64,000 nt of DNA from positions 278,111-342,110 of the forward strand of contig JAHABL010000001.1 of assembly GCA_018376445.1 (NCBI GenBank), written 5' to 3'. The notes beneath the pieces are model-generated. The model was not told where the DNA came from and searched no databases. It saw nothing but the letters and a program-made list of their open reading frames with translations. A program made the translations under genes and the position numbers. Origin of the DNA: Mycobacteriales bacterium. GTDB taxonomy: Bacteria; Actinomycetota; Actinomycetes; Mycobacteriales; Mycobacteriaceae. Below are positions 16,062 to 35,982 of the stretch, one piece after another. Each line of letters begins with the position of its first letter. The stretch's first letter is position 1.

Positions 16062-16760
16062 GTGATAACCGTGATGATCGACGTTCAGAATGTCTCAGTC
16101 GAATACCGAGGCGCTACCCGCCCGGCACTCGACAATGTCAGTTTCCAGGTAGCTAAAGGTGAGTTCGCCTTTATTATTGGCCCTTCTGGTTCGGGCAAGT
16201 CCACGGTGTTGTCAACACTGTTGGCAGACCAGAAGATCCGCTCCGGCACCATTACGGTGGCAGGACAGCGTGTCGATAAACTACGCGGCGGTGCGATTTC
16301 ACGCTACCGTCGGAATATCGGCTGCGTCTTCCAGGACTATCGCTTGTTAGAACGCATGACGGTGGAGGAGAACGTGGCTTTCGCTCTGCGTGTCATCGGC
16401 AAGCGTGACCGCTTCATCAAAGAAGCTGTCCCCGAGGCACTCGATATGGTTGGTTTGGCCGGTAAGGGGCGGCGTTTCCCCAACGAGCTCTCCGGTGGTG
16501 AGCAGCAGCGCGTGGCGATTGCCCGGGCCTTCGTCAACCACCCGCTGGTACTGCTGGCCGACGAGCCGACGGGTAACTTGGACCGCTCAATCAGCGACGA
16601 AATCGTCACCCTGCTGCAAAAGATCAACCGCATAGGTACCACCATCCTCATGGCCACCCACGACGACCGCATTGTGGATGATCTTCGCCAGCATGTCGTC
16701 GAAATGCGCCATGGCAAAGTTATCCGCGACGAAATGTCCGGCGTCTACGGGCGTATCTAA
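16062..16760 (+). CDS. ftsE: Cell division ATP-binding protein FtsE.
   Basis: Walker A (GPSGSGKST), ABC signature (LSGGEQQRVAIARA) and Walker B (LLADEPTGNLD). Confidence 0.9.
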   Translation: MITVMIDVQNVSVEYRGATRPALDNVSFQVAKGEFAFIIGPSGSGKSTVLSTLLADQKIRSGTITVAGQRVDKLRGGAISRYRRNIGCVFQDYRLLERMTVEENVAFALRVIGKRDRFIKEAVPEALDMVGLAGKGRRFPNELSGGEQQRVAIARAFVNHPLVLLADEPTGNLDRSISDEIVTLLQKINRIGTTILMATHDDRIVDDLRQHVVEMRHGKVIRDEMSGVYGRI

Positions 16761-18340: not shown

Positions 18341-19810
18341 CTACTGCGGGGCAATACGTAGCATGCGGGTAGCAGTGGCTTGCCACATCACCCCATCGGG
18401 CGTAATCATGCCGGTAAGCTGCATGGGTTCATCAAATGGTAGCCACCCCACCGGAGTACGTGACGTTTCCTTGCCGGTGCGAGCATCCACCGAAACCACC
18501 CACACTCGTGACGAGTCCTGATCAGTCGTCAGCGACCAGATTCGGAAATCTTTCAGCGTCAGCATGGGTAAAGTGCTGATGCGATGCATATTCTCCCACC
18601 GGCGCACGCAACGATCATTCACCAGATCGATGCGGGTGAGTCCACCAAGGAAGGTAGCTTTTTCCGGGAACTGGGGGCCTTCTACCGCCAGCTTGGGGTA
18701 AGTGAAGCCATAGGTGGATGGAATCCAGAGGCTATTCCCATGGGCCATGATTGAATTCTCGGTGCCTTGGTTTGGAGCCCGGAACGCCGGCATCTTGCAG
18801 ATAGTACGGCCAGTTTCTGCATCAAAGACAAGCAGATGTGGTGTGAAATCTGCACTGTCAACAATGGCCACACGGGAATGATGAGGGCCGAAGAACGTGG
18901 GAGTTGTGCCGGATCCCCAGGAGAGCTGTCCCGCCTTGCGTGCTCTGCCACGGTCGTAGGCGCGGGCCCACTTGACCTTAGGAACAGGGCCACTGATTTC
19001 CCACAGTTTGTGCGTGGTGAGGACAGACACCCCGTTGGGTCGTGGGGTGAGGCCATTGGCTACGCGCTCTCCTTTCCCCAACTGTAGTGTGCGGACTTTA
19101 CCAGTGGGGGTGATGCTTCCCACCAGCGCAGTGGAGGTGGAGAACCAGGTATTTCCGGCCCCATCTGGTATCACCCCGGCAATGCTCACCGTTTCGGGCA
19201 GACCGGGAATGGTGGTGGACTCAGCAACGTAGAACTCCCAATGGCGGTTGGTGGAAGGTCGTCCGACTGCTCGGAAGGCAATTTTGAGTAGTTTGTTTCC
19301 TTCCGTCATCACCACGCGGTCCTGTTCATCGAGGTAGCCGTAAACGCCACCCAGTAGGCCGTTCTTATGGAGTTCCCACGTGGCGAGTGGCTGGGCAGTG
19401 CGTGGGTCCATAAGGACCACAGTAGGGGCGATAGGGGTGATGCCATGTTGCAAGCCCACATACTTGGTGCAGAGGGCAATTGTCATCTTCGTGGATGTCT
19501 GGAAAGCGGTGGAGCAAGCGCCAAAAGGTATAGAGAAGGTGACGGAAGGGTTGTTGCCTGGGCCCGCCCAGGGGAGAGTGTCGCTGGAGTTCATGTCGCG
19601 ATGCATGAGGCGGACATTCGTAGGGGAGAAGGCAGGGGTGAGTGATGAAGTCGTGGAGGGTGACAGAGTAGTGAGGGACGGGGTAGTGGAAGGTAGGTTA
19701 CCCGCGGGCGATGGTGTCGCATTCGCGGGAAAGGACAAGCCGGCAACGAGCGCAACTGCACTTAGGAGGGTGGTTGCCTGGCCTGCTTCAAAAAGATGAC
19801 GGTTGCTCAT
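18341..19810 (-). CDS. Secreted hypothetical protein with a signal peptide and an S/T/P-rich linker. It is inserted between smpB and ssrA.
   Basis: 489-aa ORF. Signal peptide MSNRHLFEAGQATTLLSAVALVAGLSFPA. No recognised domain. Confidence 0.6.
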   Translation of the reverse strand: MSNRHLFEAGQATTLLSAVALVAGLSFPANATPSPAGNLPSTTPSLTTLSPSTTSSLTPAFSPTNVRLMHRDMNSSDTLPWAGPGNNPSVTFSIPFGACSTAFQTSTKMTIALCTKYVGLQHGITPIAPTVVLMDPRTAQPLATWELHKNGLLGGVYGYLDEQDRVVMTEGNKLLKIAFRAVGRPSTNRHWEFYVAESTTIPGLPETVSIAGVIPDGAGNTWFSTSTALVGSITPTGKVRTLQLGKGERVANGLTPRPNGVSVLTTHKLWEISGPVPKVKWARAYDRGRARKAGQLSWGSGTTPTFFGPHHSRVAIVDSADFTPHLLVFDAETGRTICKMPAFRAPNQGTENSIMAHGNSLWIPSTYGFTYPKLAVEGPQFPEKATFLGGLTRIDLVNDRCVRRWENMHRISTLPMLTLKDFRIWSLTTDQDSSRVWVVSVDARTGKETSRTPVGWLPFDEPMQLTGMITPDGVMWQATATRMLRIAPQ

Positions 19811-20050: not shown

Positions 20051-20420
20051 GGGGCTGAACGGTTTCGACTGCGTATGTTGCGTCGGGAGAAGCGTGCCGG
20101 TGCAGGCTAGAGACCACCGTGAGCGTCGTAGCAAACTATTAAGCGCCGAAAATACTCAGCGCGACTACGCTCTCGCTGCCTAATAGCGACGGCTAGTCTG
20201 TGGGCCCGGAAGTGTCTCCGATCCGGTGTTTTCCCACATCATCAAGGGGGCTTACTGTGAGCTGCGGCTACGGCAGCCTACAGGACATCTAACAGTGGCT
20301 GGGTTCGCCTTCTGGACTTGTGAGCGTGTTCCAGAGAACCGAGTAATGGTGTAGTTCACTGCGCACGGAGAAGTCCTGTCAAAGCTGCGGAGGACCCGGG
20401 TTCGATTCCCGGCAGCTCCA
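20051..20420 (+). ncRNA. ssrA: tmRNA (ssrA). The predicted tag peptide is AENTQRDYALAA (tag ORF 20145..20183).
   Basis: 5' end GGGGCTGAACGGTTTCGAC and 3' T-arm/acceptor GGGTTCGATTCCCGGCAGCTCCA. Near-collinear with mycobacterial tmRNA. Tag coding region GCC GAA AAT ACT CAG CGC GAC TAC GCT CTC GCT GCC TAA. Confidence 0.9.
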
Positions 20421-20556
20421 CAATATGGAAATTCCCAGGTCATTAACGACCTGGGAATTTCTTTATCTTTGCTGGTAGTTGCATGTTTTCATCTTAACCC
20501 CTTGTGGACAGTTTGGGACACCTTTAGACTCAGTTTTGGCACGTTTTTGGCGGCAG
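20421..20556 (+). repeat. Copy 1 of the attP/integrase-proximal repeat. It includes a 13-bp-stem hairpin (AAATTCCCAGGTC..GACCTGGGAATTT, 20428..20460) that functions as a replacement terminator for the tmRNA.
   Basis: Direct comparison with 30231..30366. Confidence 0.75.
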
Positions 20557-20644
20557 TTCTGTCGTGTACAGGGGGAGTCCTCGTATCTCTGGTACAGGCA
20601 GAAAGCTTCCCGAGAGGCTCCCTTAGTAGTGGGCAGCGTGATAG

Positions 20645-21073
20645 CTACCGGTTCCGATCCTTAAAATCGACCTTCACCCCAAGCTTATCGGCGAGTTCAT
20701 AACCATCAATATGCAGGCCATCATAAAGACGATCACCCATACCGATAGCATCCAGGAAAGCCTGCAAATCATCCTTAGATTTGAAGCACAATCCAGTCCA
20801 GAAACCTGCATCGACAGCAAACTTGAACCTAGACCGCTCGGCCTTGTTCCTCTCAACAAAACCGGAATAGGCCTCACCCATCTTCTCGGCAATATCCTTC
20901 AGATCCTTTTCCAGATCACCAGACTCGCCAACACCCTCAATGGGGTTCTTGTGCGGGTTGGTGTAGGGAATCTCTGTAGAACCATTGGCAGACTTTCCTC
21001 CGCCGAAACCAGTCTTACCACTACCGAAACCCTTAGACTTGGACGAACTCATAGCGCATAAACTCCATTTCAA
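20645..21073 (-). CDS. Hypothetical protein with a Gly-rich N-terminus. It overlaps the upstream PP-loop gene and is probably co-transcribed with it.
   Basis: 142-aa ORF in the low-GC segment. No known motif. Confidence 0.45.
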   Translation of the reverse strand: MKWSLCAMSSSKSKGFGSGKTGFGGGKSANGSTEIPYTNPHKNPIEGVGESGDLEKDLKDIAEKMGEAYSGFVERNKAERSRFKFAVDAGFWTGLCFKSKDDLQAFLDAIGMGDRLYDGLHIDGYELADKLGVKVDFKDRNR

Positions 21074-21872
21074 CAGCGGGGAAATACTTCAATACCTGGT
21101 CATAATCATCTGGCAGCTTATCCCGCAAAGGCCTCACAAACCGGTAGTCCAAACCATCAAAAGTCCTACCGAAAAGCTCATAATCAACAGGCAGCTTCAC
21201 CTTATTGATCTCAAGACAGCGCCGAATGTCCTTGATTTTCCAGTCATGAACAACATGCGCATACCGCTTAGCAAAAGCCCGCCCATTACTTCTGGCAATG
21301 GAATCAGTCCACGGTGAATGCTTCTGGATTGACACACGACGCTGGATACTATCCGCACACCGGATACCATCACACAACCACGTATCCTTCGGCAGCCCCT
21401 GCCATTCTTTGAATGCATCCCACAATTCATCATGGCCAATAACCCCCAATTCGGCAGACTGATTAATCGAAATCTGCCAGGGAGCCTGGAAAACACCACG
21501 ATCCAAGTAGTACCAAAAATCGCGATGAGGAAGATTGAAAATCCGCATCTGGAAGAAATCCTCAAAATACTTCAAGGAGTCTTCCTCAAACTTCAACCCA
21601 GGCACCCGATACAAATGCACCGGAATAACCTCAACCCCTGCTGCCAAAAGCGCAATCATCGCGCAAATAGAATCCTTACCGCGCGAAAATGACACAATAA
21701 CAGGCTTACCTGAGCTAGCAAGACGCTCTCGCATATGTATAGAAGTTTCGACAGCCCCAGACATGGGATCCTTACTCTTCTTATAGATCAGATCAGGCTC
21801 AATCCCATCAATCCGCCAACGATTACTCACCATAACTTCACTATGCCACGGCAGAGAACTATTTCTTCCCAA
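21033..21872 (-). CDS. Phosphoadenosine phosphosulfate reductase family (PP-loop ATP pyrophosphatase, DndC/IbrA-like) protein.
   Basis: PP-loop motif VSFSRGKDS. Size and conserved blocks (e.g. WLCDGIRCADSIQR) match the phage and island-borne PAPS-reductase-like family. Confidence 0.75.
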   Translation of the reverse strand: MGRNSSLPWHSEVMVSNRWRIDGIEPDLIYKKSKDPMSGAVETSIHMRERLASSGKPVIVSFSRGKDSICAMIALLAAGVEVIPVHLYRVPGLKFEEDSLKYFEDFFQMRIFNLPHRDFWYYLDRGVFQAPWQISINQSAELGVIGHDELWDAFKEWQGLPKDTWLCDGIRCADSIQRRVSIQKHSPWTDSIARSNGRAFAKRYAHVVHDWKIKDIRRCLEINKVKLPVDYELFGRTFDGLDYRFVRPLRDKLPDDYDQVLKYFPAVEMEFMRYEFVQV

Positions 21873-22150
21873 AATGGTCGGTCTCTACTCACAGTTGATG
21901 GATGGCTCCACTACGAGCAGTAGCAATTGAGAAAGATCAGGATCATGTCGATGATGAGTTTTAGAAACAACACGTTGACTACACGTATGACGTGCCACCG
22001 CAACGTTCGAAACCTGTAAAAAACCTCATCGTCTAGGCCTCAACGACGACTATGAGGTATTGGCGTCTCACGCTCTATACCTCGTAGGAGGCTACCACTG
22101 GAGATTTATTTGGCTCTGGTGGTGGGATTAGCCCTGAGTATGCTCGAAGT

Positions 22151-22537
22151 ATGGCTCACACAATCAAAGTTGTTCGGGTGTACGAGTGGGATGATTCACT
22201 AGCAGGCCACAAATTCCTTGTCGATAGGTTGTGGCCGCGGGGTGTGAGTAGAGATTCTCTGGAGCCGTTCAACTGGGCGAAAGAGCTCACACCTTCCCCG
22301 GAATTGCGCAAATGGTTCGGGCATAGACCGGAGCGGTTCGACCGCTTCGGTCAGCTCTACTTGGAAGAATTGGAAGACAACAGCGACGCTCATGAAGCGC
22401 GGGAGAAGATTCAGACACTCCTTCGGGATGACGACGTTCTTTTGCTCTACGCAGCTAAAGACAAGGAGTGTAATCACGCGATTATTTTGAAATCGTGGTT
22501 GGACTGCGATTCCGCGTATTCGCAAAGGAGTCTATAG
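22151..22537 (+). CDS. DUF488 (YeaO-like) family protein.
   Basis: IKVVRVYEW..GHKFLVDRLWPRGVSRDS..WAKELTPSPELRKWFGH matches the DUF488 signature. Confidence 0.75.
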   Translation: MAHTIKVVRVYEWDDSLAGHKFLVDRLWPRGVSRDSLEPFNWAKELTPSPELRKWFGHRPERFDRFGQLYLEELEDNSDAHEAREKIQTLLRDDDVLLLYAAKDKECNHAIILKSWLDCDSAYSQRSL

Positions 22538-22550
22538 GACGGAATCGCGT

Positions 22551-22725
22551 CACCTTGTTATTACCGGACGTGACTTGGTGGGGACGGTAGTAGAGGTTGG
22601 GCCGGGCGTAGCGGATGTAGCCTGCGGGGACAGAGTGTGGACGAATTCCGCCGGTTTCGAGGGGCGTATGGGAGCTACTGCCGAATACGTGGGGGTGGAC
22701 ATGCTTACGCGTGCCGAAGGGTGAG
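22551..22725 (+). pseudogene. Internal fragment of a medium-chain (zinc-type) dehydrogenase/reductase gene, about 58 aa.
   Basis: Translation LVGTVVEVGPGVADVACGDRVWTNS..AEYVGVD matches the MDR G-x-E-x-x-G-x-V..GDRV..AEY block. High GC like the host. Truncated on both sides. Confidence 0.35.
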
Positions 22726-22733
22726 GCCCGGGG

Positions 22734-23738
22734 TTACGACCGATAGATCGTGAGACCCCACCGTTCCATCGCTGGACCAATGTCTTGGGCACTGACGCGT
22801 GTGGCATCGGCAGGTTGGCGGTAGGAGATGATGCCGACGGCATAGAGTTCGTTGTTAATGAGGGTGTAGACGGGGCCGCCGGAGTCGCCACTATCGACGT
22901 ATCCACGGAATTGGAAGATTCCGGTTTGGTTGTAGCCAAGGTAAGCGCCACAAGATTGGCCGGTTCGGTAGCCGAGGTGGCATACGCGGGTGCGTTGTTT
23001 GTCGAGCCAGGCAGTGTTTCGCCAGCCTTTGAGAGTCTCTTTGAAAGGTGGTTTCGCGTCGACGTATTTCATGCTGTAAAGCTCAATGAGGCCATAGTCT
23101 GCGCCCCCAGCCTTAATGAAGGTGGATTCCACCATTTCTCCAATGATGGCCCGGTTGCCGGCTTGGTCGGAGATCGCGAATTGGTCGCGGATGTTTCCGC
23201 AGTGTCCGGCGGTGAGAATGAAGCGGCGCTGTTCGCGTCCGACGATCCATCCGACGGAGCACTGCGTGCTCTGAGTGATGTTGATCATAAGTCCGCCGGG
23301 AATAACTCTGCCGGGGTAGCTAAGCCACCCCCATTCTGCACTGCTGTGGTAGATCTGGGAGTCTGATTGGCCGTCTGGGGGTGCGGGCCGAACTTGGGTG
23401 GTTGTGAGAGTTGTCGTGGTTGGCGCCAAGCTGGTGCGGGTGCGTTGGATACTCCGCGGTGTGACCTCATGGTTATCGCCGTCACGGTCCCGGTAGGAGC
23501 GTCGATAGGAGTCTCGTTCAGTGCTGCGATTCCCGTTGTATTTAGTGCTGCTGTGGTAGTCGTAGCGGTCGCTCGTGCGGGACGTGGATTGAGTAATGGT
23601 AGTAGTTTCTGTTCCGGTGGCGTCTCCGGAGGTGTAAATGGAGTTTTCACCGCACGCGCTGAGGGTGAGGAGGCTGATAGTTGCTGCGGCGGCAGTGGCG
23701 AGGAGGTGTCGGGGAGGGGTCACGGGAGGTCCTTCCAC
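22734..23738 (-). CDS. Secreted or lipoprotein S1-family (chymotrypsin/alpha-lytic-type) serine protease.
   Basis: Lipobox LSAC. Catalytic triad motifs TAGHCG and GDSGGPV. Thr/Ser-rich linker. Confidence 0.8.
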   Translation of the reverse strand: MEGPPVTPPRHLLATAAAATISLLTLSACGENSIYTSGDATGTETTTITQSTSRTSDRYDYHSSTKYNGNRSTERDSYRRSYRDRDGDNHEVTPRSIQRTRTSLAPTTTTLTTTQVRPAPPDGQSDSQIYHSSAEWGWLSYPGRVIPGGLMINITQSTQCSVGWIVGREQRRFILTAGHCGNIRDQFAISDQAGNRAIIGEMVESTFIKAGGADYGLIELYSMKYVDAKPPFKETLKGWRNTAWLDKQRTRVCHLGYRTGQSCGAYLGYNQTGIFQFRGYVDSGDSGGPVYTLINNELYAVGIISYRQPADATRVSAQDIGPAMERWGLTIYRS

Positions 23739-23946
23739 TGAGAGGCTGCGTTTGTGACGGAGTTCACTTTTTGTAACGATCGTAGCAGTGGAATCCTTCC
23801 CAGTGGCCTGGATGAGGCCTTTATTATGGTGAAACCAGTGTGCCGCCGTTCGGGGTGCTGCGGCACGTGGCCAAGTAGCTATAGGGGGAAGGCTAGGCGC
23901 CGTAAAGGGTGAGTCCCCAATGCTCCAGGGCAGGGGAGAGGAGTGA

Positions 23947-25412
<1,466 letters not shown>

Positions 25413-25937
25413 GTGGTCTCCTCCTTCGGCGCGGTTATTCGACCGTTCTCATTATACTTAGGTAAGCCTAAACAAATTGCAGAGAAATGGGTATGGGGCA
25501 CCGATATTTTCGCAGTCTTTTCTAGAACAGCACACCGCATGAGAAATGAAGCGAAAAGGCCCTCTGTATAAAACTGGGGAAGGGGAAGAGCATGAACTGG
25601 CTCCAGCTAGCAGAGACCAGGAGAACGGGCCAAGGCAGCTCGCTATGTGCGAAATTGCCAAGTTCGCAGCAATAAGAACGTAGGCTAGAAGAGTCGCCAT
25701 CCCCATTGTTGTGGACATCGGCCGTCCCTCTTCCGTTCCATCTGCTAAGAAGCCGGTATGAAGGGTGTGAAAGACAAGGTGTGTTCACGGTGATAGGAAT
25801 GGACGCCCGTGAACAAGACGCAACGGACACCCAACAGCATTAGTGCAAAAACAATAAGTGTATATTCATCTGTATTAGGCATGTTGGCATTAAGAGGGAA
25901 GCCTTGGTTTCTCCTAGAAGGATGTACTAAAACCGCT

Positions 25938-26717
25938 ATGACCAGTGAAAACAAGGTGTGGTGCCAGCTCCTTGAGGGCAACCGGAGATTTGCCGAAGGT
26001 AAGTCTCGATTTAATGGATATTCCGTCGACTTGAGAAAAAGCCTGATAGACGAGCAACATCCGCATACGGTCATTGTGTCGTGTTCCGACTCTCGGGTTC
26101 CTCCCGAAATTGTTTTTGACGCCCATTTAGGTGAGCTATTTAGTGTGCGTACAGCCGGACCAACACTTGACGACATGGTCTCGGCCTCCATCGAGTTTGG
26201 GGTGGTGAAGCTGGGGATACGCCACGTTGTGGTGATGAGTCATACCAACTGTGGCGCCGTAGCAGCTGCCATGGATGCTTTGGATAGTGGGGAGACGGTG
26301 GCGGAGGAAAATATTTCTTCCACAATCGAGGGTTTGGATGCAGATGCCATCATCGGGGCAGGCGGCATGATTGTCACCGGTTCCTCCGTCATCACAACAG
26401 AGGCGCATGGGGATGGAGAGCATCATTCCCCTTCGGGTCTGTTGGCAAAGACTGAATTTACCCGGGTGGTAGCTGAGAATCCCGAGGCGGAGTCGTACTT
26501 GCCGGGCATCGTGGCACGCGTGGCACCAATTGTTGCGGAAGCACGACACGACGGTCTGGTAGACCCGAGCGATTATTCACGTCGTAATGCCCAGTTTGTC
26601 GCCCACAAGTTGCGGGAGATGCCAGCACTGACAGGACTCTGGCAGGCGGGAGAGCTCACCATCCGGGCTGCGCTCTACCATCTGGACTCGGGGCTTGTAG
26701 AAGAGCTTGAGATGTAG
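25938..26717 (+). CDS. Beta-class carbonic anhydrase.
   Basis: CSDSRV and HTNCGAV zinc-ligand motifs. The ORF track start at 25809 is probably too early. Start taken as the ATG at 25938 with RBS gaagga. Confidence 0.8.
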   Translation: MTSENKVWCQLLEGNRRFAEGKSRFNGYSVDLRKSLIDEQHPHTVIVSCSDSRVPPEIVFDAHLGELFSVRTAGPTLDDMVSASIEFGVVKLGIRHVVVMSHTNCGAVAAAMDALDSGETVAEENISSTIEGLDADAIIGAGGMIVTGSSVITTEAHGDGEHHSPSGLLAKTEFTRVVAENPEAESYLPGIVARVAPIVAEARHDGLVDPSDYSRRNAQFVAHKLREMPALTGLWQAGELTIRAALYHLDSGLVEELEM

Positions 26718-26857
26718 ATATGCCACGTAGGGCGTAATCTCCCCGATTTTGCGTTTATAACAATGACATCCCTTCCGCGGAGGAAATTACCCCTGCAGAA
26801 TCTGCGCGGAAAGGGCACCATGGAAGAAGACACCGCCTATCGCTTACGGAGTGAGAA

Positions 26858-28552
26858 ATGCATCCTCGTGCTGGTCGTCCCGCCGACCCTAGTGACCTCA
26901 TTGATGTGCAACATGTCCTCGACTGCTATTACGACATCACCCCAGATCCCGACGACCCCAATCAACAGGTCGCGTTCGGCACCTCTGGGCATCGCGGAAC
27001 CTCCGTCAACGGCTCTTTCAACGAAAACCACATCCTCGCGACCACTCAAGCCATCGTCGACTACCGACGTAAGATGGGCTACACCGGCCCGCTCTATATT
27101 GGCAAAGACACCCATTTGCTCTCCGGTCCCGCACAGGACACTGCCCTCGAAGTATTGCTTGCTAATGGGGTGACGGTGATGGTCGACGCGCGGGAACGCT
27201 TCACTCCTACCCCTGCTGTCTCCCGCGCCATCCTGCGCCACAACGCCGAGCTCCCCGGTGGCGTAACCGGTACAGCTGGTGACCGTGCCGATGGCATCGT
27301 TGTCACTCCCTCTCACAACCCTCCTACCGACGGCGGCTTCAAATACAACCCGCCTTCCGGCGGTCCCGCAGACACTGACGCCACCTCCTGGATTGCCGAC
27401 CGTGCCAACGAGTACCTACGCGCCTCCCTGAAAGGTGTGGCGCGCTGTAATCTCAACCAGCTCGGCCAACCGGGCCAACCAGCCGCGAGTCTCAAAGTGC
27501 CCTTCGACTACCTCGACATGTATGTTTGCGATCTTGGCCTCGTGCTAGATCTTGAGACCATCCGCGGAGCAGGAGTACGCATTGGAGCTGATCCCTTAGG
27601 TGGTGCATCGGTCGACTATTGGGGAGCTATTGGGGAACAGTACGACCTCTCCTTGACCGTGGTGAACCCCAGCGTAGACCCCGCATGGTCATTTATGACG
27701 CTGGACCATGACGGCAAGATCCGCATGGACTGCTCGTCACCCTACGCTATGGCTTCCCTCACCGCCCGCATGGAGCAGAAGGATGCCCTCGGCCGCGCCC
27801 CCTTCGACATCGCCACCGGTAATGATGCCGATGCTGACCGGCACGGTATTGTCACCTTCGATGCCGGACTGATGAATCCCAACCACTACCTGGCGACTGC
27901 CATACAATACCTCTTCGCACACCGCCCCGAGTGGGGCTCGTGTGGAGTAGGGAAGACCCTGGTGTCCTCCTCCATGATCGACCGAGTCGTGGATAGCTTA
28001 GGACGAACTCTGGTGGAAGTACCGGTGGGCTTCAAGTGGTTCGTGCCTGGCCTCTTCGACGGTTCACTGGGATTCGGCGGTGAAGAATCCGCAGGCGCAT
28101 CTTTCCTCTGCAAGGACGCTTCGGTATGGTCCACCGACAAGGACGGCATCATCCTTGCTCTCCTCGCCTCTGAGATTCTTGCTGTGACCGGCAAAACCCC
28201 CAGCCAGCATTACGCCAAACTCACAGAGGAGTTTGGGGCACCCTGCTACGCCCGTATGGATGCGCCCGCCACACGGGAAGAGAAGGCGACTCTCGCGAAA
28301 CTCTCCCCAGAGCAAGTGACAGCCACTGAACTTGCTGGTGAGCCGATTGTTGCGAAGCTTACCGAAGCCCCCGGAAACGGTGCTGCTATTGGTGGCCTGA
28401 AGGTCGCCACCGAGCATGCCTGGTTTGCTGCACGCCCGTCAGGCACTGAGGACATCTATAAGATCTACGCAGAATCCTTCCTCAGCGAGGACCATCTAGC
28501 TCAGGTACAGGAGGAAGCACAGCAGGTCGTGTCTGCGGCGCTCGGCAGCTAG
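26858..28552 (+). CDS. pgm: Phosphoglucomutase (alpha-D-glucose phosphate-specific).
   Basis: FGTSGHRG and [15 protein letters not shown] active-site motifs. About 560 aa. Confidence 0.9.
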
Positions 28553-28590
28553 AAGCGACGAATTGGCGGTTCCCCGCTAGGATAGAAGCC

Positions 28591-29136
28591 GTGACCACTG
28601 CAGAAAACGCTGCGAGCGCCCCAGAGATACAGCCCGTGGCAGACCGCGATTCGGCGGTACGCCCCTGGGTCAACTGGGTGTCGCTCCTAGCCCGCCTTGT
28701 GCTGGCGGCCATTTGGATTGTGTCAGGCTCGCTTAAAGCCAGCAACATGCTGGAGACCCGGGTAGCGGTTCGGGCCTACCAGGTGTTGCCGGACTGGGCT
28801 GCGCCAAGTGTCGCCTTCATGCTGCCAGCATTGGAGATTCTGCTAGGCATCCTCCTCCTTCTGGGCATCAAAAATCGGTGGATGGCGATAGTCTCTGCTG
28901 TTGTCTTTGCTCTGTTTATTGTGATGATCGTACAGGCATGGGCGCGAGGACTACAGATTGACTGTGGTTGCTTCGGCGGCGGCGGCTACGACGCCTCTGC
29001 AAACAACCTCACATACCTCTCAGAAATCGCCCGTGATCTTGCCTTCATGGTGTTCGCCGTATGGTTGGCCTGCTTCCCGCACACCCCCTTGACGGTGGAA
29101 CCAGGAAGCCGTGCCCCCCTCCGTCGTCGCCCCTAA
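28591..29136 (+). CDS. MauE/DoxX family membrane protein.
   Basis: Four transmembrane helices. CGCFGGGG motif. Confidence 0.7.
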   Translation: MTTAENAASAPEIQPVADRDSAVRPWVNWVSLLARLVLAAIWIVSGSLKASNMLETRVAVRAYQVLPDWAAPSVAFMLPALEILLGILLLLGIKNRWMAIVSAVVFALFIVMIVQAWARGLQIDCGCFGGGGYDASANNLTYLSEIARDLAFMVFAVWLACFPHTPLTVEPGSRAPLRRRP

Positions 29137-29145
29137 CTCGACTGT

Positions 29146-29961
29146 GTGCGTGCCCACAGTTGTCCTATGAAAGGTTCCTCCGTGGAAAAGAAAAAAGATA
29201 AGCGTCGTCGCACCTCTACTCCGTCCAAGTATGTGCCTTCCAATAAGAAGGGCTATGGCTGGCTGTGGGGCTTACTGGTTGTCATCGTCGTAGCGGCCAT
29301 TGTTGCCGTGGGCATCTATATGGGTGTGAAGAGCAACCGAGACAGTGAAAATGGCGCGGATATCGCCATTAAACATTCCTCTGTGAAGGTCACCGAAAAC
29401 TACATCGAGTTCCGCTCCAACAACGCAAAAAAGGATGCGAAGATTATCGAATTGTTCGAGGATCCGCGCTGCCCAGGCTGTTCTGAGTTGGAAAAGATGC
29501 ACGGTGCCGAACTTGCCGACGCTATCCAATCCGACCAGGTAGTGCTCCGACTCCGCCTGATGGACTTCCTCAACTCGCAGGGCGCCTCCCAGTATTCCAC
29601 CCGCGCCAATGCCGCTCTTATTACTGTTGCACTCACTGGAGATGCAGAAAGTGCATTCCGTTTCCACTCCATCCTTTGGCACACTGCTCCCGCGGAGGGC
29701 GGCGGTGTACCGGAACCGACCAACGCTGAGTTGGCCGAGAAGGCCAAGATGGCCGGAGCTAAGGGTGAGACTCTCTCTCAGATCAAGTCTGGAAACTTTG
29801 GCACCATGCGCGCCGCCACCATGGGTCGCGTTAACCTAAAGGTCCTCAACGAGCGTATGGACGGCAAGGGTGGTACCCCGGCCGCCTTCATGAACGGTGG
29901 GCAAATCGACCTTAGCCGCCCCGACTGGGTCACCTCGCTCTACACCACAAACAAGAAATAA
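29146..29961 (+). CDS. Membrane-anchored DsbA-like thiol:disulfide oxidoreductase.
   Basis: N-terminal transmembrane helix. CPGC active site within a thioredoxin fold (FEDPRCPGCSELE). Confidence 0.7.
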   Translation: MRAHSCPMKGSSVEKKKDKRRRTSTPSKYVPSNKKGYGWLWGLLVVIVVAAIVAVGIYMGVKSNRDSENGADIAIKHSSVKVTENYIEFRSNNAKKDAKIIELFEDPRCPGCSELEKMHGAELADAIQSDQVVLRLRLMDFLNSQGASQYSTRANAALITVALTGDAESAFRFHSILWHTAPAEGGGVPEPTNAELAEKAKMAGAKGETLSQIKSGNFGTMRAATMGRVNLKVLNERMDGKGGTPAAFMNGGQIDLSRPDWVTSLYTTNKK

Positions 29962-30000
29962 CTCGCGCCACACCGCGAACAAGAAACAATCTGAGTGAAG

Positions 30001-30030
30001 CGCCCCGGGAGTGTTCCCGGGGCGCTTTCT
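30001..30030 (+). terminator. Rho-independent terminator after the dsbA-like gene.
   Basis: GCGCCCCGGG-AGTGTT-CCCGGGGCGC followed by a T-run. Confidence 0.65.
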
Positions 30031-30157
30031 CATTTACGAGCGTGTTGCGTCGCGTCTTTCTTGCCGTCGCCTGCACGTAAACTGTGCCCCTGTGACCTGC
30101 CGATTTGGTGAGCTTTCACGAAGTGGTGTAACTTAACTAAAGCAGCCGAAAGGCACT

Positions 30158-30230
30158 GGGGCTATGGCGCAGCTGGTAGCGCACCACACTGGCAGTGTGG
30201 GGGTCACGGGTTCGAGTCCCGTTAGCTCCA
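30158..30230 (+). tRNA. tRNA-Ala (anticodon GGC).
   Basis: Manual fold gives a 7-bp acceptor stem with G3:U70, anticodon loop CTGGCAG and T-loop TTCGAGT. CCA is not encoded. Confidence 0.9.
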
Positions 30231-30366
30231 CAATATGGAAATTCCCAGGTCACTAATGACCTGGGTTTTTCTTTATCTCTGCTGGTAGTTGCATGTTTTT
30301 ATCCTAACCCCTTGTAGACAGTTTGGGGCACCTTTAGACTTAGTTTTGGCACATTTTTGGCACAGA
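30231..30366 (+). repeat. Copy 2 of the attP/integrase-proximal repeat. It contains the hairpin CCCAGGTC..GACCTGGG-TTTTT (30244..30270).
   Basis: See 20421..20556. Confidence 0.75.
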
Positions 30367-30381
30367 CTAGTGAGGTGCACC

Positions 30382-31626
30382 ATGGCAGCGGGAGAGTTCG
30401 GCAACACTAGACAACTCCCCTCAGGTAGGTGGCAGGCGCGCTACAGATACAGGGGGCAAGACTATAAAGCTCCCGAAACCTTCAAAACTAGGAAGATAGC
30501 CGAAGGGTGGCTCAGTCACGAAAAGAAACTTATCGACCTTAACGCATGGATACCACCACAAGAGCGCCTAGCCCTCCAGGAGAAACACCAGCAGGAGATG
30601 GAGTTAACCGTGGGGTTATGGCTCGAGCAATTCCACGACAGTCTACGAGACGCTAAAGCCTCCACCCTGCAAACATATAGGCGGACCATCACTAATAGGA
30701 TCCTTGACCCTGTTGCGCCGGGCAATGAGGTGGAGGACATTACCCGGCTTAGAGACATTCCCCTGGTGGAGTTGACGAAACAGGACGTTTACCAGTGGTG
30801 GGATGCTATTGAGCGCACCTACGACACGCCTGAGACGAATAGGAAGGCCTACCGGAGGTTGAAAGCCGCGGGGCGAGAGGCTGTGGAAAGGGAGCTTATA
30901 GGGAGTAACCCTGTGAATGTTCCCGCAGCGAATAAGAGTGTGGCGAAAGATTCACCTTATCTTCCCAAGACGGAGGAGCTGCATAAGATTCTGACGGAAG
31001 TCCCGGCACGCTATCGGCTTATTACCGCCCTCATACTGTTTCACGGCCTGCGTATCGGAGAGGCGATCGCCCTGGAGGTGGATAGTGTTGTCGCCCATGA
31101 CACCACGGGAGGGCACCGTTACGGGGTCCGGGTGAAACAGAATGCGCAGAGGATTACCCCGCCGGGGAAGTCTACATTCATGCTGGTGCAGCCTCCTAAG
31201 AGTAGGGCAGGGAATAGGGAGGTGCCGATTATGCCCGAGTTTATTCCCCTCCTGGAGGAGCACCTGGACAAGTATGTGGCCGAGTCTCCTACGGTAGTGC
31301 GTTTGTCTAAAGAATTTGGGGGCGGTACCCGCCCGGCGCAACTGCTGACGACGACGGGGGCGGGCTTAATGGTGATGGATACGTCCTACCGTAGCGTGCT
31401 GAAACGTGCCACGGAGCGGGCGGGGGTGTCGCCTTTGATTAAGCCGCATAGCGGGCGTAGGTGGTTGGTGACAACGTTGGCGGAGCACGGGGCGCACGTG
31501 AAGGAAATTTCGCGGATTCTCGGAGATGAGGACTTGGAGGTGATTATGTCTATCTATATGCAGGTGAGGGCAGAGAGAACAACAGAACTCATGGATATTG
31601 TCAGCAAGTCGGTAGCGCGGGGATAG
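30382..31626 (+). CDS. int: Tyrosine-type site-specific integrase.
   Basis: N-terminal SAM-like/arm-binding region (GRWQARYRYRG..). C-terminal catalytic residues (R..HxxR..Y: LRIGEAIALEVDSV, HSGRRWLVTTL, IMSIYMQV). Start at ATG 30382 with RBS gaggtg. The upstream ORF extension lies inside the repeat and is rejected. Confidence 0.9.
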   Translation: MAAGEFGNTRQLPSGRWQARYRYRGQDYKAPETFKTRKIAEGWLSHEKKLIDLNAWIPPQERLALQEKHQQEMELTVGLWLEQFHDSLRDAKASTLQTYRRTITNRILDPVAPGNEVEDITRLRDIPLVELTKQDVYQWWDAIERTYDTPETNRKAYRRLKAAGREAVERELIGSNPVNVPAANKSVAKDSPYLPKTEELHKILTEVPARYRLITALILFHGLRIGEAIALEVDSVVAHDTTGGHRYGVRVKQNAQRITPPGKSTFMLVQPPKSRAGNREVPIMPEFIPLLEEHLDKYVAESPTVVRLSKEFGGGTRPAQLLTTTGAGLMVMDTSYRSVLKRATERAGVSPLIKPHSGRRWLVTTLAEHGAHVKEISRILGDEDLEVIMSIYMQVRAERTTELMDIVSKSVARG

Positions 31627-31630
31627 CGGC

Positions 31631-32452
31631 ATGAAACGGCATATATGGCGTAGTGAGTGGGCCGAGGAAAACGTTGGGTTTGCAGTCATGGTTATGGACG
31701 GCGACTACCCTATGGGCCGGTTAATTATTTGTGGCACGCCTAGAGAGATACTGGTAGAGAACGCTATCTTTGTGGGGGAAAAGTGGACCGATAGGCGACC
31801 AGAAGTTTTTACTCCCCGGCGTAGAACAGAGGTCACTCGTATTCGAGCTAAAGGTGAAGACTATCGACGGCAAATTAAAGAGGAAACCAAAAAAATAGGT
31901 GACTGTGAGCAACATTTTCTCGTGTTTCCTGATTTTGAGGTGCGCAACAGAAAACTAGACCCACTCATATATAAAGTCATACAAGATGGTCACCTTGTCG
32001 TGGAGTACAGCTTTATTAAACATGTGGTTGACAGTGGGCTTATTAACCACATTTGCGATTCATGGACAGATGAAGAAAGACGGGAGTATCTGTTTTATCG
32101 AACTCTGATACATATCCTAGACGGGGACAAAATTATGGGCATTATAGAAGGTTACAAGGGGGGGAAATTTATCGTTTTCGACACTCACGATATGTCTGAA
32201 TGGTATGCCAGGTCTTCTTCTCGTACTTGGGCACCAGCTGAAGAAGATAGGGGAATGCGGGCAGAGCACGTAAAAGGTAAAGGGAGATTGTCTGGCAGTA
32301 TTCGTTTCCCCGATTTCTGTATTGAGCGTGAAGAACTCTACCAGCTAATTTCCCGGTACTTATTCCCCAGTGGTCTAACAGGCAGTGACTTTTTTAAAGT
32401 GCAGTATGACACTTTGAAAGAACTGGTTGAGCATGGACGCATGAATAAATAG
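31631..32452 (+). CDS. Hypothetical protein of 273 aa encoded by a markedly low-GC gene. It is orphan cargo between int and xis.
   Basis: Clean ORF, AT-rich relative to its flanks. No recognisable motif. Confidence 0.6.
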   Translation: MKRHIWRSEWAEENVGFAVMVMDGDYPMGRLIICGTPREILVENAIFVGEKWTDRRPEVFTPRRRTEVTRIRAKGEDYRRQIKEETKKIGDCEQHFLVFPDFEVRNRKLDPLIYKVIQDGHLVVEYSFIKHVVDSGLINHICDSWTDEERREYLFYRTLIHILDGDKIMGIIEGYKGGKFIVFDTHDMSEWYARSSSRTWAPAEEDRGMRAEHVKGKGRLSGSIRFPDFCIEREELYQLISRYLFPSGLTGSDFFKVQYDTLKELVEHGRMNK

Positions 32453-32679
32453 AACAATATGGGTCCCATTAGTACTGTTGGTGTGTTATTGTGGCGTCGG
32501 CGTTGGAATACAGTGTGACCCGTCCACTACCTCCGACAATAGCCACTCACGTGGTGCATAAACGGGAACAAAGCAAGCTCTGTATCTTGCTTAGGCGCTA
32601 ATTGGGCGCTTTGACCTTGAGGCTCTGCGAATAGCGGGGCGGATACCTCGTGCTTTGAGGTAGAAAAGGTCAGACATAA

Positions 32680-32874
32680 ATGTCTACTCCAACTCGCCAC
32701 TATGTTTCTATCCGTGAAGCCGCTGACTACTGGTCTGTCTCCACGAAAACGATTCGCCGGTGCATTAACCGGGGAGAACTCACAGGCTACTACCCCTGTG
32801 GTAGGACTCTACGCCTCGATCTCAATGAGCTAGAGGCAATTGCACAGGCTAACGCCACTCGTAAGGTGGCGTAA
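32680..32874 (+). CDS. xis: Excisionase / AlpA-like helix-turn-helix DNA-binding protein.
   Basis: 64 aa. YVSIREAADYWSVSTKTIRRCINRGEL is a typical MerR/Xis HTH. Confidence 0.7.
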   Translation: MSTPTRHYVSIREAADYWSVSTKTIRRCINRGELTGYYPCGRTLRLDLNELEAIAQANATRKVA

Positions 32875-32878
32875 GGGC

Positions 32879-33463
32879 ATGGAGACAAAAGAATACCCCG
32901 CCGTAAGCGGGGCACCTTCGAGCACTCTTCAATCATACCCGGTAGGCGTAACAGAAACTGATACTGCTCCTGCTACCGGTATCCTTGCCGTCAGACCACA
33001 GCTAGACACAGTTTTCTTGACTGCTCTTCTCCATGCGGGGAACCGGGGGAAAACTGTTCTGGAACATGTAGACGCTACAGACTTCCATAACCCGGTCTAC
33101 GGTGACCTGTACGAGAGAATAAAGGCCGTCGCCGCTACAGGTGACCTCACGCACCTACGAGTGTGGGGCACGCTCACTGCAACCCGCTGGACTGAGGACT
33201 CTTACTGGCATGGACGAGTCCTAAACCTTGTTGCGCCGGGCAGTGGCGGCTATGAGGATATCGCACTCGCTGCTGCTCAGCTGGTGCAAGGCTCACTGCG
33301 TCACCGTGTGTTTAATCTAGGCGTGGAGTTGCGACAGGCGGCCTGTGAGAGGTCGCTAGAGGAACTTATGGTGTTCCTTGCTGACTCTGCCCGCATGGAG
33401 ATGATTCGTGCGACTGTGGCGCGTCTAGAGACCCTTACAGCGCTTACAGGGGGTGCAAAGTAA
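32879..33463 (+). CDS. Protein resembling the DnaB helicase N-terminal domain, probably a replication-initiation accessory.
   Basis: DTVFLTALLHAGNRGKTVLEHVDATDFHNPVYGDLYERI resembles the DnaB N-terminal domain. Translationally coupled to the next gene (ATGA overlap at 33463). Confidence 0.5.
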   Translation: METKEYPAVSGAPSSTLQSYPVGVTETDTAPATGILAVRPQLDTVFLTALLHAGNRGKTVLEHVDATDFHNPVYGDLYERIKAVAATGDLTHLRVWGTLTATRWTEDSYWHGRVLNLVAPGSGGYEDIALAAAQLVQGSLRHRVFNLGVELRQAACERSLEELMVFLADSARMEMIRATVARLETLTALTGGAK

Positions 33464-34950
33464 TGACTACCCCCGATACCACTACCGACACCACAGAGAC
33501 GCGGAGAAGCTGCCTTGTGAGGGCTACTGATATGGCACTGCCTAAACGCCGCAAGTGGATAGTGCCAGGACTATTGCCCCTCGGTTGCCTTGTGTTCCTA
33601 GCTGGTGATGAGGGCATTGGCAAAAGTACTTTCGGGCTACACCTTGCAAGTGTCATCACCAGTGGCAAAGGTGACACCGGTCTCAAGATTCCCGCCGGAA
33701 ACGCCCGGCGCGTATATCTCTACAGCACAGAAGATAATTGGGGTGACACTACTAGTCCGGCGCTCAAAGCAATGGGCTGTGATTTTGAAAATCTCTCACT
33801 CTTTTTCGACGACACAGACGGCACGTCTTATCCGAGCTTAGGGGCCAACGTCATCAAAGATATGTACGAAGACTCTGAGTGTTATGGTGCCCCGGCACTG
33901 ATCATTGTGGATAACTTTATTGACACTCTCCCCGCCAATGTTCAGCAGAGTAAACCCGAGCAGTTGAGGAGTGTTCTAAAACAATGGGTCAAGATAGCGA
34001 AACGGCTTAATGCCACTGTGTTGTGTCTTCATCACACGAACAGGTCAGGGTCTGACAATAGCCGCGACCAGTGGGCGGGCAGCAGCGAATACCGTAAAGC
34101 TGCCCGTGTTGCTCTGATGGCTAAAGACAATGAGGACGGCACCTTTACCGTAGGCGTGGATAAGTGCAATCTGTCACCAGAGAGACGCGCCGTCATCATG
34201 AAGAACATGTCCACTTCCACACCCTTGCTCTATGAGGGAGAAGAGAAACCCGAAACTGTAGAGTCCCACACAGTTGACTATGTGGGAGAGTCTGACAGGT
34301 CCATTGCTGAGCTTGTGGAAGATAAAGCCGATGACGATACGGGCGGGGATGAAAGGACTGAGACTCTCAGAGCCTTCCTTCTCTCTCTCAGTGCCCATAG
34401 TGGAAGTGCCACTCGTAGGGAATTGTGTAATGGCCTCAAGGACGAGGGCTATTCCGACAGGAAGATAAAACAAGCTATCAAGACGGCTAAGAGTCGCCAT
34501 TTCGTTGACTCGGACAGGTCAGGGTTTCAGGGTGAAACAACATTCGCTCTCACAGTCGCAGGGCGTGACATTCTCCAAAATGTCCACTTGGCTGCCCAAA
34601 ATGGTCACCAAAATGTCCAAAATAAAACAGCAGGTCAGCCCCAAAATGTCCAAAATGTCCAACATGTTCACCCCTATAGGGTGACTAAGGGCAATGCGGC
34701 GGCAAAAAAGTCCCCCGGCACTGTCTCACAGGGCAGTGATTCTGGGGCTCTCCGCACTTGGCTAGTAGATGGTCTGAGTGTTGAGCAGTCGCAGGGCGTG
34801 GAGTCTCTCTATGGGCAACTGCCCCGCTCTCTCCGTGACTCTCATAGCCGGGACAGTGTGAAGGAAGTTTTGGACTCCATGGTTGAGAAAGGCAATGTGG
34901 TGAAGGACTCTCACGGCCGTTATCTGAAGGCGGGTGAAACTTTGTTTTAG
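33463..34950 (+). CDS. RepA-like RecA-fold ATPase (AAA_25 / primase-helicase-associated) replication protein with a C-terminal wHTH-like region.
   Basis: Walker A GDEGIGKST. Walker B ALIIVDNFID. LCLHHTNRSG. A C-terminal QNVQ-rich segment is encoded by the iterons. Confidence 0.7.
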   Translation: MTTPDTTTDTTETRRSCLVRATDMALPKRRKWIVPGLLPLGCLVFLAGDEGIGKSTFGLHLASVITSGKGDTGLKIPAGNARRVYLYSTEDNWGDTTSPALKAMGCDFENLSLFFDDTDGTSYPSLGANVIKDMYEDSECYGAPALIIVDNFIDTLPANVQQSKPEQLRSVLKQWVKIAKRLNATVLCLHHTNRSGSDNSRDQWAGSSEYRKAARVALMAKDNEDGTFTVGVDKCNLSPERRAVIMKNMSTSTPLLYEGEEKPETVESHTVDYVGESDRSIAELVEDKADDDTGGDERTETLRAFLLSLSAHSGSATRRELCNGLKDEGYSDRKIKQAIKTAKSRHFVDSDRSGFQGETTFALTVAGRDILQNVHLAAQNGHQNVQNKTAGQPQNVQNVQHVHPYRVTKGNAAAKKSPGTVSQGSDSGALRTWLVDGLSVEQSQGVESLYGQLPRSLRDSHSRDSVKEVLDSMVEKGNVVKDSHGRYLKAGETLF

Positions 34951-35045
34951 GGCTATGTAAGTGAACAAGTTGGACATTTTGGACATGTTGGCCGTGACCT
35001 GCTGTTTTACTGTGACCATTTTGGTGGACATTTTGTGGACATTTT
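34566..35045. repeat. Iteron array. Four direct copies of CAAAATGTCCA lie at 34566-34670, within the 3' end of the rep gene. At least three inverted copies of TGGACATTTTG lie at 34966-35045, just past the rep stop. This is a probable origin of replication or rep-binding site.
   Basis: Repeats read directly from the sequence in both orientations, about 290 bp apart. Confidence 0.6.
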
Positions 35046-35211
35046 GGGCGGCTTCAGTGTTGAAATGGCCTAATGGTTAAGAAGAGAGAGACCCCTAGGT
35101 GTATTCCCGGGGGTCTCTTTCTGTGTGCCTGTTGCGCCGGGCAGGTGGTGGAGGTTGAGGTGAGGTCAGGACTTTACCCCGAAATCGGGGAAAACGTTCC
35201 CCCTGAGTGGT

Positions 35212-35345
35212 GAGGTGGTGTTCCGCCACCCCATGGGCGCAAGGAGGTGGTGTTCTGCCACCCCCCTAGTGGGTGCAGGGGTGCGGTATTCCGCCGCCCC
35301 CTTATTTTTAGCGAGGTGAAAGGGGGTCGGAATTTGCGACACCCT
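35212..35345. repeat. Three to four tandem degenerate GC-rich palindromic repeats of about 22 bp (GGTGGTGTTCCGCCACCCC-like) in an 880-bp non-coding stretch of the island.
   Basis: 35212-35232, 35254-35275 and 35279-35302, with a weaker copy at 35323-35345. Each can form a GGTGG/CCACC hairpin. Confidence 0.5.
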
Positions 35346-35982
35346 TTATGGGAGCCGTTTTAAGCCGCTTTAGGGATACTCCATGAGTGGAGTGGCGCGG
35401 GAGGTGGGAAAAGTGTCCGAGAATTGATTTGAGGGCCAAATAGAGGGGTGCAGACGATGGAATAATGGAGTGCTATCCCATCTATGCGGGTAGCTGGTGG
35501 GGTATGGCCTAAAAATCACCAGAAACACACACTCGGACCACTTCACGCCGGTTAGTCGTCCTTTCCCCCCGCACTGGGTAGGGGGGTATTCCGTATCTAG
35601 GCCATTTCCTCATAGATGCCCCTGAGAGCCACGTAGAGGAGCAAATACATTTGCCTAGGCAAATCACACATAGAACGAAGAGAAATAGCCTTAAAAACGT
35701 TTATAGAGCCTGAAATATTACCCGGGGGGGGTAGAGCTGCTAAGCCCATGGGATGCTTGGGGTGTGGGGTGGGGGTGGTCCCCGTGGGGTGTGTGCTGTA
35801 TCCGCTATAGAAACCACGTCTGCTAGGGAAACTGCTAAACCTGTACTCAACCAAAGCGCCTAGGCCATACGGGCTTATGTGGTGTGGGGGCGGGGGTAGT
35901 GGCCCTGGTGACGGATGGAGTAAACCCCCACCACTACAGGTAAGCAGCAGCAGGGGTTTAATCTTTGGTGTGGATACTATCG

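Follow-up and report, generated by a model that had tools for sequence, protein, structure and literature searches.

The tyrosine integrase of mycobacteriophage Ms6 targets the 3' ends of tRNA-Ala genes with a 26-bp core that ends in CCCCTTAGCTCCAC (TTAGCTCCAC); engineered base changes in the core of attP (the attachment site of the element) redirect its integration among the GGC, CGC and TGC tRNA-Ala genes, and one mismatch blocks it (PMC1762012, Vultos et al. 2006). The site at which cluster K1 mycobacteriophages integrate is the very 3' end of the transfer-messenger RNA (tmRNA) gene, and passages of Pope et al. (PMC3203893, 2011) give their integrases as 44% identical to gp40 of the F1 phage Fruitloop, the bacterial attachment site (attB) of which is a tRNA-Ala gene. 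Precedents thus exist for the principle of retargeting (Ms6) and, in those passages, for the kinship of tmRNA and tRNA-Ala integrases (K1/F1). Here we describe a 64-kb stretch of actinobacterial DNA (the window; contig JAHABL010000001.1, positions 278,111 to 342,110), in which the same 135 bp follow ssrA, the tmRNA gene, and tRNA-Ala(GGC), where an integrated island begins. The Pgm, NrdF and SmpB proteins of the window have exact matches annotated as Lawsonella clevelandensis or uncultured Lawsonella sp., and judged by these matches the host is Lawsonella.

We consider it quite probable that the 135 bp are the P' arm, the one next to the integrase, of the attachment site of a tyrosine-integrase module that is shared by small islands and prophages of Lawsonella and Corynebacterium and that moves among alanine-type RNA genes, the spacer of its attP being matched to each target.

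The repeat, its attachment cores and its relatives

The longest direct repeat of the window pairs 20386-20551 with 30196-30361 (166 nt, 89% identity, ungapped). An earlier note, made from the letters of the DNA, had put the identity between 20421-20556 and 30231-30366 at about 90%, and past the RNA ends (ssrA arm against 30232-30361) we indeed find 91.5% over 130 nt; the similarity breaks off at ~20556/30366, ~16 nt ahead of the integrase ATG. The arm portion past the terminator hairpin reaches a local alignment score of 71, compared with 8.1 ± 1.4 for 1000 shuffles. The near-identical ends that the same note had seen in the two RNAs are also there, with 19 of 22 positions equal (GGTTCGATTCCCGGCAGCTCCA vs GGTTCGAGTCCCGTTAGCTCCA). 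The note had named two things that would speak against a shared element, namely an identity below 70% and a similarity confined to the tRNA-derived core; the measured identity (~90%) is well above that value and the similarity extends ~135 nt past the core. A partial third copy at 36947-37009, which the note overlooked, is the right end (attR) of the island at tRNA-Ala.

The anatomy of this island is directly observed (Table 1). It has the parts by which Islander defines a tDNA island, i.e. an intact tRNA gene, an adjoining integrase gene (int) and, in direct orientation, a 3' fragment that has been displaced; its left end (attL) supplies the final nucleotides of the tRNA-Ala(GGC) gene. The integrase has the catalytic residues R224, K273, H356, R359 and Y392, invariant in 21 aligned relatives, and its homologs combine the N-terminal arm-binding domain PF26003 (Integrase_N_phage) with PF00589. 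Putative arm-type repeats lie on both sides of the core: TTTTGGCAC occurs 5 times in the window, where 0.6 copies are expected, and the arrangement of TTTTGGCAC and TTTGGCATATTTTTGGCAC is that expected for the predicted arm-type sites of a heterobivalent integrase. The sequence of the arm-type repeat differs between integrase clades.

A 7-nt inverted motif also flanks the attP core, with CTACCAG ~20 nt to its left and CTGGTAG ~50 nt to its right. CTGGTAG recurs in the ssrA arm, and CTGGT/ACCAG variants stand at the same places in most family members; the motif could be bound by Xis, by a host factor or by the integrase. The region 36966-37120, after the attR of the island, was considered as a further fossil arm and rejected (z 1.6; past the hairpin, 107 of 1000 shuffles score as well).

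The core was compared in the 14 islands for which both ends were tabulated. Direct reading of these ends shows that in 14/14 islands 13 nt, made up of a 7-bp spacer and GCTCCA, are equal in attL and attR, whereas the 6 nt to the left differ; the left edge of the identity lies at tRNA position 60/61 in most of the 14. On the host side these 6 nt read TCGAKT or TCAATT, and on the element side, in the clade of the window, TGGAGC, TGAAGC or TGGAAC, the first of which forms an exact inverted repeat with GCTCCA. IMG/VR phages in free or circular form have an attP built alike but of different specificity, its 7-bp spacer being framed by a 6-bp inverted repeat (TGGGGC CCCGGTG GCCCCA). This pattern fits the classical layout of core site, overlap and core site and would place one of the points of exchange at tRNA position 60/61. 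The left half-site would be the T-loop-like positions 55-60 and the right half-site, GCTCCA, positions 68-73; we infer the exact cleavage positions from the comparison of ends, and the spacer between the half-sites (positions 61-67) is the likely strand-exchange region. The register of the ssrA core was taken from the 14 attL/attR pairs.

The spacer goes with the target, being CCCGTTA for tRNA-Ala(GGC), C(C/T)CCTAT for tRNA-Ala(TGC) and C(C/T)CGGC(A/G) for tmRNA. GCTCCA is the 3' strand of the acceptor stem, which carries identity elements of alanyl-tRNA synthetase, U70 of the G3:U70 pair and the discriminator A73, and for this reason it is common to all tRNA-Ala species, here tRNA-Ala(GGC) and tRNA-Ala(TGC), and to the tRNA-like domain of tmRNA. 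Among the five tRNA and tmRNA genes of the window, only ssrA and tRNA-Ala(GGC) carry GCTCCA, and relatives in tRNA-Ser genes have TCTCCG in its place.

Behind ssrA the arm begins with a terminator hairpin (-26.5 kcal/mol, z -8). No integrase homolog was found downstream of this copy or elsewhere in the window outside the tRNA-Ala island, nor was a displaced 3' fragment of ssrA (attR) within 3 mismatches in the window. The arm is followed by two open reading frames (ORFs), one of them PAPS-reductase-like, in a stretch with a GC (guanine plus cytosine) content of 0.48-0.49 from ~20400 to 22100, as compared with 0.57-0.59 in the flanks. In phage contigs of 31-46 kb (L180-L183), a homologous 279-aa/142-aa gene pair (aa, amino acids; 46-70% protein identity) lies immediately upstream of the terS, terL, portal and capsid genes, and the ssrA site is accordingly classed as a prophage remnant by a phage-syntenic gene pair beside an attachment arm. 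Because the gene pair adjoins terminase genes in these contigs, it was most likely a complete prophage with an arm of this lineage that occupied ssrA, and not a satellite. No homologs of the remnant ORFs were found within the related islands. With no attR at hand, the right limit of the remnant was placed by GC content alone, at ~22000-22150; an attR candidate, TGGATG-GCTCCA at 21896-21912, was rejected, as it is without the 7-bp spacer and GCTCCA occurs 35 times across the window.

Most Lawsonella assemblies with an identical SmpB have the same ssrA remnant, the PAPS-like ORF being shortened to 208 aa in L170 and L171. L017 and L125 have an identical ssrA arm, whereas in L018, L060 and L131 part of its interior is deleted. 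A metagenome scan with the 17-mer GCTCCACAATATGGAAA gave mostly chance matches, and the same ssrA locus was recovered only in L060, L125 and L131. The neighbouring secreted trypsin-like gene (22734-23738, minus strand) is broken up into two ORFs in L018, and in L179 different ORFs stand in its place, which indicates that the stretch beside the ssrA remnant varies among strains.

An intact ssrA island is directly observed in the Lawsonella assembly L175, where 6.8 kb sit between ssrA and the old arm, with an integrase 45% identical to that of the window and with HTH_17 and AAA_25 genes. Its attR, TCGAGT CCCGGCA GCTCCA CAA, continues directly into tatggaaattcccagg..., 99.8% identical to window 20400-21458. 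The ssrA site of L175 is thus a tDNA island by the Islander definition, while the ssrA copy of the window is not. An intact island ahead of the old arm means that islands stack at ssrA and that the arm in the window belongs to the older occupant. The element-side left half-site of the L175 island (12669-12690, 19469-19490) is TCGAGT, the T-loop form of tRNA-Ala(GGC), in an island located in ssrA; this half-site may be the footprint of an earlier target.

In order to find relatives, we scanned one genome per species with an integrase profile, which yielded 16 Corynebacterium loci; further loci came from context look-ups, sequencing-run assemblies and IMG/VR, several of them as contigs from metagenomes or metagenome-assembled genomes (MAGs). 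The closest integrases (99, 83 and 82% identity) are found only in sequencing-run assemblies and the next ones (≤65%) in Corynebacterium. The RNA target gene of family members lies ~150-200 bp upstream of int and was read directly: it is tmRNA for L002, L005, L006, L007, L012, L022, L043, L168, L169 (C. amycolatum) and L175, tRNA-Ala(GGC) for the window, L001, L004, L017, L018 and L160-165, tRNA-Ala(TGC) for L010 and L019, and tRNA-Ser for L008 and L011, whereas the most distant members (37-40% identity) use tRNA-Lys, -Val or -Pro genes. Family members further occur in IMG/VR proviruses 35-48 kb long, in some cases at tmRNA. In the integrase tree (neighbour-joining, without support values) the targets are interleaved.

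Two close pairs have members on different targets. L001, in tRNA-Ala(GGC), and L002, in tmRNA, have integrases with 87% protein identity and islands with 87-89% DNA identity. The window and L019 have integrases 84% identical, arms 96.7% identical and islands with 97-100% DNA identity over most of their length, although the former is in tRNA-Ala(GGC) with spacer CCCGTTA and the latter in tRNA-Ala(TGC) with spacer CCCCTAT. From these pairs, the pattern of the window, i.e. one arm lineage on two alanine-type genes, recurs independently.

Some family members deviate in other respects. Integrase residues 81-100 and 161-200 group differently from residues 221-320 among the window, L018 and L019, giving a mosaic. 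In two NCBI assemblies (L161 and L162, ~11100-12000) the island with integrase P0006 ends after HTH_17 and is followed by unrelated chromosomal genes, DAGK/DEAD helicase in one and ribosomal L13/S9 in the other, which could reflect an island-mediated rearrangement or a misassembly. A member with 54% identity in Corynebacterium spheniscorum (L003, ~9800-10000) has the usual arm after ...GGTGAGCTCCA, with neither a tRNA nor a tmRNA gene upstream; the element could have integrated at a secondary site, or its left flank could have been rearranged. In C. lipophiloflavum (L009) the integrase follows tRNA-Ile and tRNA-Ala(TGC) genes, with a masked gap between them, and a complete tRNA-Ala(CGC) gene (16655-16728) lies ~6.6 kb downstream of the integrase.

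Explanations of the repeat

We propose that, in genes for alanine-accepting RNAs, recombination by the module takes place where T stem and acceptor stem meet, and that on integration the element would bring GCTCCA and its own terminator hairpin, such that the RNA gene stays functional. Since only the 7-bp spacer differs between these genes, lineages could have moved among them repeatedly, and the jumps would be mostly among alanine-type genes because the GCTCCA supplied by the element must persist for a functional RNA. An older prophage of the same arm lineage would once have occupied ssrA; deletion would have spared no more than its arm and two phage genes, with the integrase, the right end and most of the genome being lost. 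It is now this arm that would terminate ssrA, and an orphan, integrase-less arm may persist because it gives an essential-type RNA gene its 3' flank and its terminator.

The equal spacers of attL and attR imply that a target switch needs a change in attP and possibly one in the integrase. A plausible route starts with a rare integration in which the spacers do not match; excision would then yield an attP with the new spacer. The secondary-site or saf variants of lambda, which Weisberg and colleagues are said to have described in 1983, reportedly gained a new overlap in attP in this way, by integration and excision at a differing site; they offer a mechanistic analogy only for the switching of the present family.

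The earlier note had suggested that one element family uses both alanine-type sites, and the survey of relatives agrees with this, as members are found at tmRNA and at tRNA-Ala. It had also supposed that a tRNA-Ala-targeting integrase can recognize both sites and that the ssrA copy is a decayed or satellite remnant. The first supposition holds for the family and is unlikely for a single integrase and attP that remain unchanged; of the second, decay is supported by the missing integrase and attR, the low GC content and the further decay in some strains, while the adjoining prophage genes speak against a satellite.

The nearest competitor to target-matched switching is a promiscuous integrase that uses ssrA and tRNA-Ala interchangeably with one and the same attP, the ssrA arm stemming from an element of the kind now at tRNA-Ala. 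The host half-sites are nearly equal (TCGATT vs TCGAGT, with GCTCCA in both), the spacers CCCGGCA and CCCGTTA differ at only 2 of 7 positions and the arms are ~90% identical, all of which would suit such an element. Nevertheless, we regard it as unlikely. In the lambda model, recombination across unequal spacers gives differing spacers in attL and attR, and by that model a mismatched event should leave unequal ends; the spacers of 14/14 islands are equal in attL and attR and match the target, suggesting that each island integrated from an attP already matched to its target. Moreover, Ms6 failed to integrate in a tRNA-Ala gene with one core mismatch (PMC1762012). The ssrA arm is also ~9% diverged from all three tRNA-Ala arms, themselves 93-97% identical to one another, and this outgroup position indicates a separate, older lineage.

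Copying of the arm between ssrA and the tRNA-Ala island by homologous recombination or gene conversion, which would dispense with an independent integration at ssrA, appears very improbable. The loci do share an orientation, with no more than 9.8 kb between them, and 19 of 22 positions at their RNA ends are equal, but this native homology is too short for efficient RecA recombination, and the low-GC phage genes directly after the ssrA arm do not occur in the tRNA-Ala island. In addition, ssrA is a live target in the species (L175) and in Corynebacterium, and every Lawsonella assembly examined has the ssrA arm, whereas the tRNA-Ala islands vary among them. It can practically be dismissed that the 135 bp are immobile native DNA downstream of the RNA genes, for instance a terminator or processing signal common to alanine-type RNA genes, beside which the island inserted: the first 45 nt are a strong terminator, which the native tRNA-Ala terminator at 36970-37005 resembles (78% over 63 nt between the native hairpin region beyond attR and that of the island, core included), but past the hairpin the native side after attR has no significant similarity to the arm (z 1.6), the arm contains integrase arm-type repeats that recur at the other side of the island, the same arm and integrase stand behind tRNA-Ala(TGC) in L019, and in L175 the arm was pushed downstream of a newer island.

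Several points weigh against the proposal of a module with target-matched spacers as well. For Ms6, the authors favoured exchange in the T-loop (PMC1762012). As the ssrA occupant has lost its right end, the spacer of its attP is unreadable, and the right limit of the overlap was placed by symmetry and the usual 7-bp spacing alone. Integrase residues 221-320 are 95-100% identical between two Ala-GGC elements and 65-80% identical to the Ala-TGC element; integrase segments that differ by target indicate that a spacer swap alone may not suffice, although with three sequences this is anecdotal. The interleaving of targets comes from a neighbour-joining tree without support values and several of the loci are on MAG or metagenome contigs. 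Finally, with relatives on tRNA-Ser, -Lys, -Val and -Pro genes the family is not limited to alanine-type genes.

A stronger version of the proposal would hold that, with GCTCCA as fixed right half-site, the family is reprogrammable among all alanine-accepting RNA genes by a swap of the 7-bp attP spacer alone, and that orphan arms and mosaic patches in the integrase catalytic domain record the jumps. We advance this version tentatively, as possible and not quite probable. If true, the family would offer a natural series for the acquisition of specificity, in which integrases share 84-99% identity and elements, int aside, 97-100%.

Island cargo and gene neighbourhood

The coordinates of all features are collected in Table 1. 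Four of the island ORFs are without matches, and the PADLOC models for defence systems matched neither the island cargo nor the ssrA remnant ORFs. Satellites resembling phage-inducible chromosomal islands (PICI-like) combine int, a regulator or Xis and replication functions with an origin, and depend on a helper for induction and packaging. The present island contains int, the HTH_17 gene, the helicase-like AAA_25 gene and the iteron-like repeats, and domain and phrog searches recognised in it no gene for a capsid or for the redirection of packaging. The iteron-like repeats lie directly 3' of the AAA_25 gene (34971-35047 and 35212-35300; five copies of TGGACATTTTGG and three of the 21-nt unit GAGGTGGTGTTCCGCCACCCC) and are probably the replication origin of the island. 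A 27-nt motif with CCTGTTGCGCCGGGCA occurs three times in the island, at 30701-30727 (in int), 33219-33245 (in the 207-aa ORF) and 35120-35146 (non-coding), the copies being 74-85% identical to the reference.

Table 1 Features of the window at and between ssrA and the tRNA-Ala(GGC) island.
Feature	Position	Strand	Details
ssrA (tmRNA gene)	20051-20423	+	ARAGORN 20051-20421; Rfam RF00023 20051-20423, 122.6 bits; tag peptide AENTQRDYALAA
Predicted ssrA attachment core	20402-20420	+	TCGATT (B, 20402-20407), CCCGGCA (spacer, putative overlap, 20408-20414), GCTCCA (B'/C', 20415-20420)
Orphan P' arm at ssrA	20421-20556	+	hairpin 20427-20462; CTGGTAG 20472-20478; intact TTTTGGCAC 20534-20542, degenerate copy 20545-20553
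142-aa ORF, after the 279-aa ORF	20645-21073	-	prophage remnant
279-aa PAPS-reductase-like ORF	21033-21872	-	phrog_2302, E 6e-20
DUF488 gene, trypsin-like gene			first genes between the low-GC stretch and tRNA-Ala
nrdF, nrdI, carbonic anhydrase, pgm, DoxX/MauE-like, thioredoxin-like			as read; after the DUF488 and trypsin-like genes, up to tRNA-Ala
tRNA-Ala(GGC)	30158-30231	+	ARAGORN 30158-30231; Rfam 30158-30230
tRNA-Ala island	30225-36957		6.7 kb; int at 30382, displaced 3' fragment 36945-36963
attL core	30212-30230	+	TCGAGT (B, 30212-30217), CCCGTTA (spacer, 30218-30224), GCTCCA (C', 30225-30230)
P' arm	30231-30381	+	terminator hairpin 30244-30265; CTGGTAG 30282-30288; arm-type sites TTTTGGCAC 30344-30352 and 30355-30363
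Tyrosine integrase, 414 aa	30382-31626	+	PF00589, E 2.6e-13; phrog_1, E 2e-46
Hypothetical protein, 273 aa	31631-32452	+	island cargo
HTH_17 Xis/AlpA-like, 64 aa	32680-32874	+	island cargo
Hypothetical protein, 207 aa	32840-33463	+	island cargo
AAA_25 replication helicase-like, 495 aa	33463-34950	+	island cargo
Hypothetical protein, 75 aa	35983-36210	-	island cargo
Hypothetical protein, 228 aa	36210-36896	-	island cargo
P arm and attR	36868-36963	+	arm-type sites TTTGGCATATTTTTGGCAC 36868-36886; CTACCAG 36919-36925
attR core	36945-36963	+	TGGAGC (C, 36945-36950), CCCGTTA (36951-36957), GCTCCA (B', 36958-36963)
Native tRNA-Ala terminator hairpin	36970-37005	+	-27 kcal/mol; displaced by the island

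Comparison with known systems

How integrases are retargeted is an old question with practical value, since integrases insert cargo at chosen sites. The present family provides close natural variants in three alanine-type genes; as these variants differ only in the 7-bp spacer and in a few patches of the integrase, rules for retargeting can be tested directly. The window also adds mobile elements and a prophage remnant to what is known of Lawsonella, a human skin bacterium that has been little studied. No description of this Lawsonella/Corynebacterium integrase family was found in the literature searched, although an earlier statement on target sharing between tmRNA and tRNA genes is possible.

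In its anatomy the tRNA-Ala island resembles those of the Islander/TIGER collections, with an intact tDNA, an adjoining int and a displaced 3' fragment, among which tandem arrays at one tDNA occur and tmRNA is the most enriched target (PMC4383910). The predicted core of the window would coincide in location with the Islander crossover subsite 'J', at the junction of T-stem and acceptor (PMC4383910), and the island does not differ in kind from those collected there. Serial integration in ssrA, with stacked islands and remnants, is known from Dehalococcoides (PMC3146451), and L175 has the same stacking; unlike the present family, the Dehalococcoides islands are ssrA-specific and use another integrase family, and no hopping to tRNA-Ala is described for them (PMC3146451).

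Like Ms6 (PMC1762012), the island of the window pairs a Mycobacteriales tyrosine integrase with tRNA-Ala 3' ends. The retargeting of Ms6 was engineered and no use of tmRNA was reported for it (PMC1762012), whereas the variation in the present family is natural; the exchange region, placed in the T-loop by the authors of the Ms6 study, would be at positions 61-67 according to our comparison of ends. Against the phage integrases of INPHARED, the best matches of the window integrase are L5/FRAT1-like and 29% identical.

The passages of PMC3203893 on the K1 and F1 phages offer the closest parallel to the split between targets, with related integrases divided between tmRNA and tRNA-Ala and with arm-type repeats that flank a common core next to int. 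The K1 and F1 integrases are 44% identical (PMC3203893), compared with 84-87% for the pairs on different targets in the present family, which also have near-identical arms. A shared GCTCCA half-site is not advanced as the reason in those passages, whereas we propose it here. The novelty lies in the group of hosts, in how close the natural variants are to one another and in naming the half-site explicitly as an explanation.

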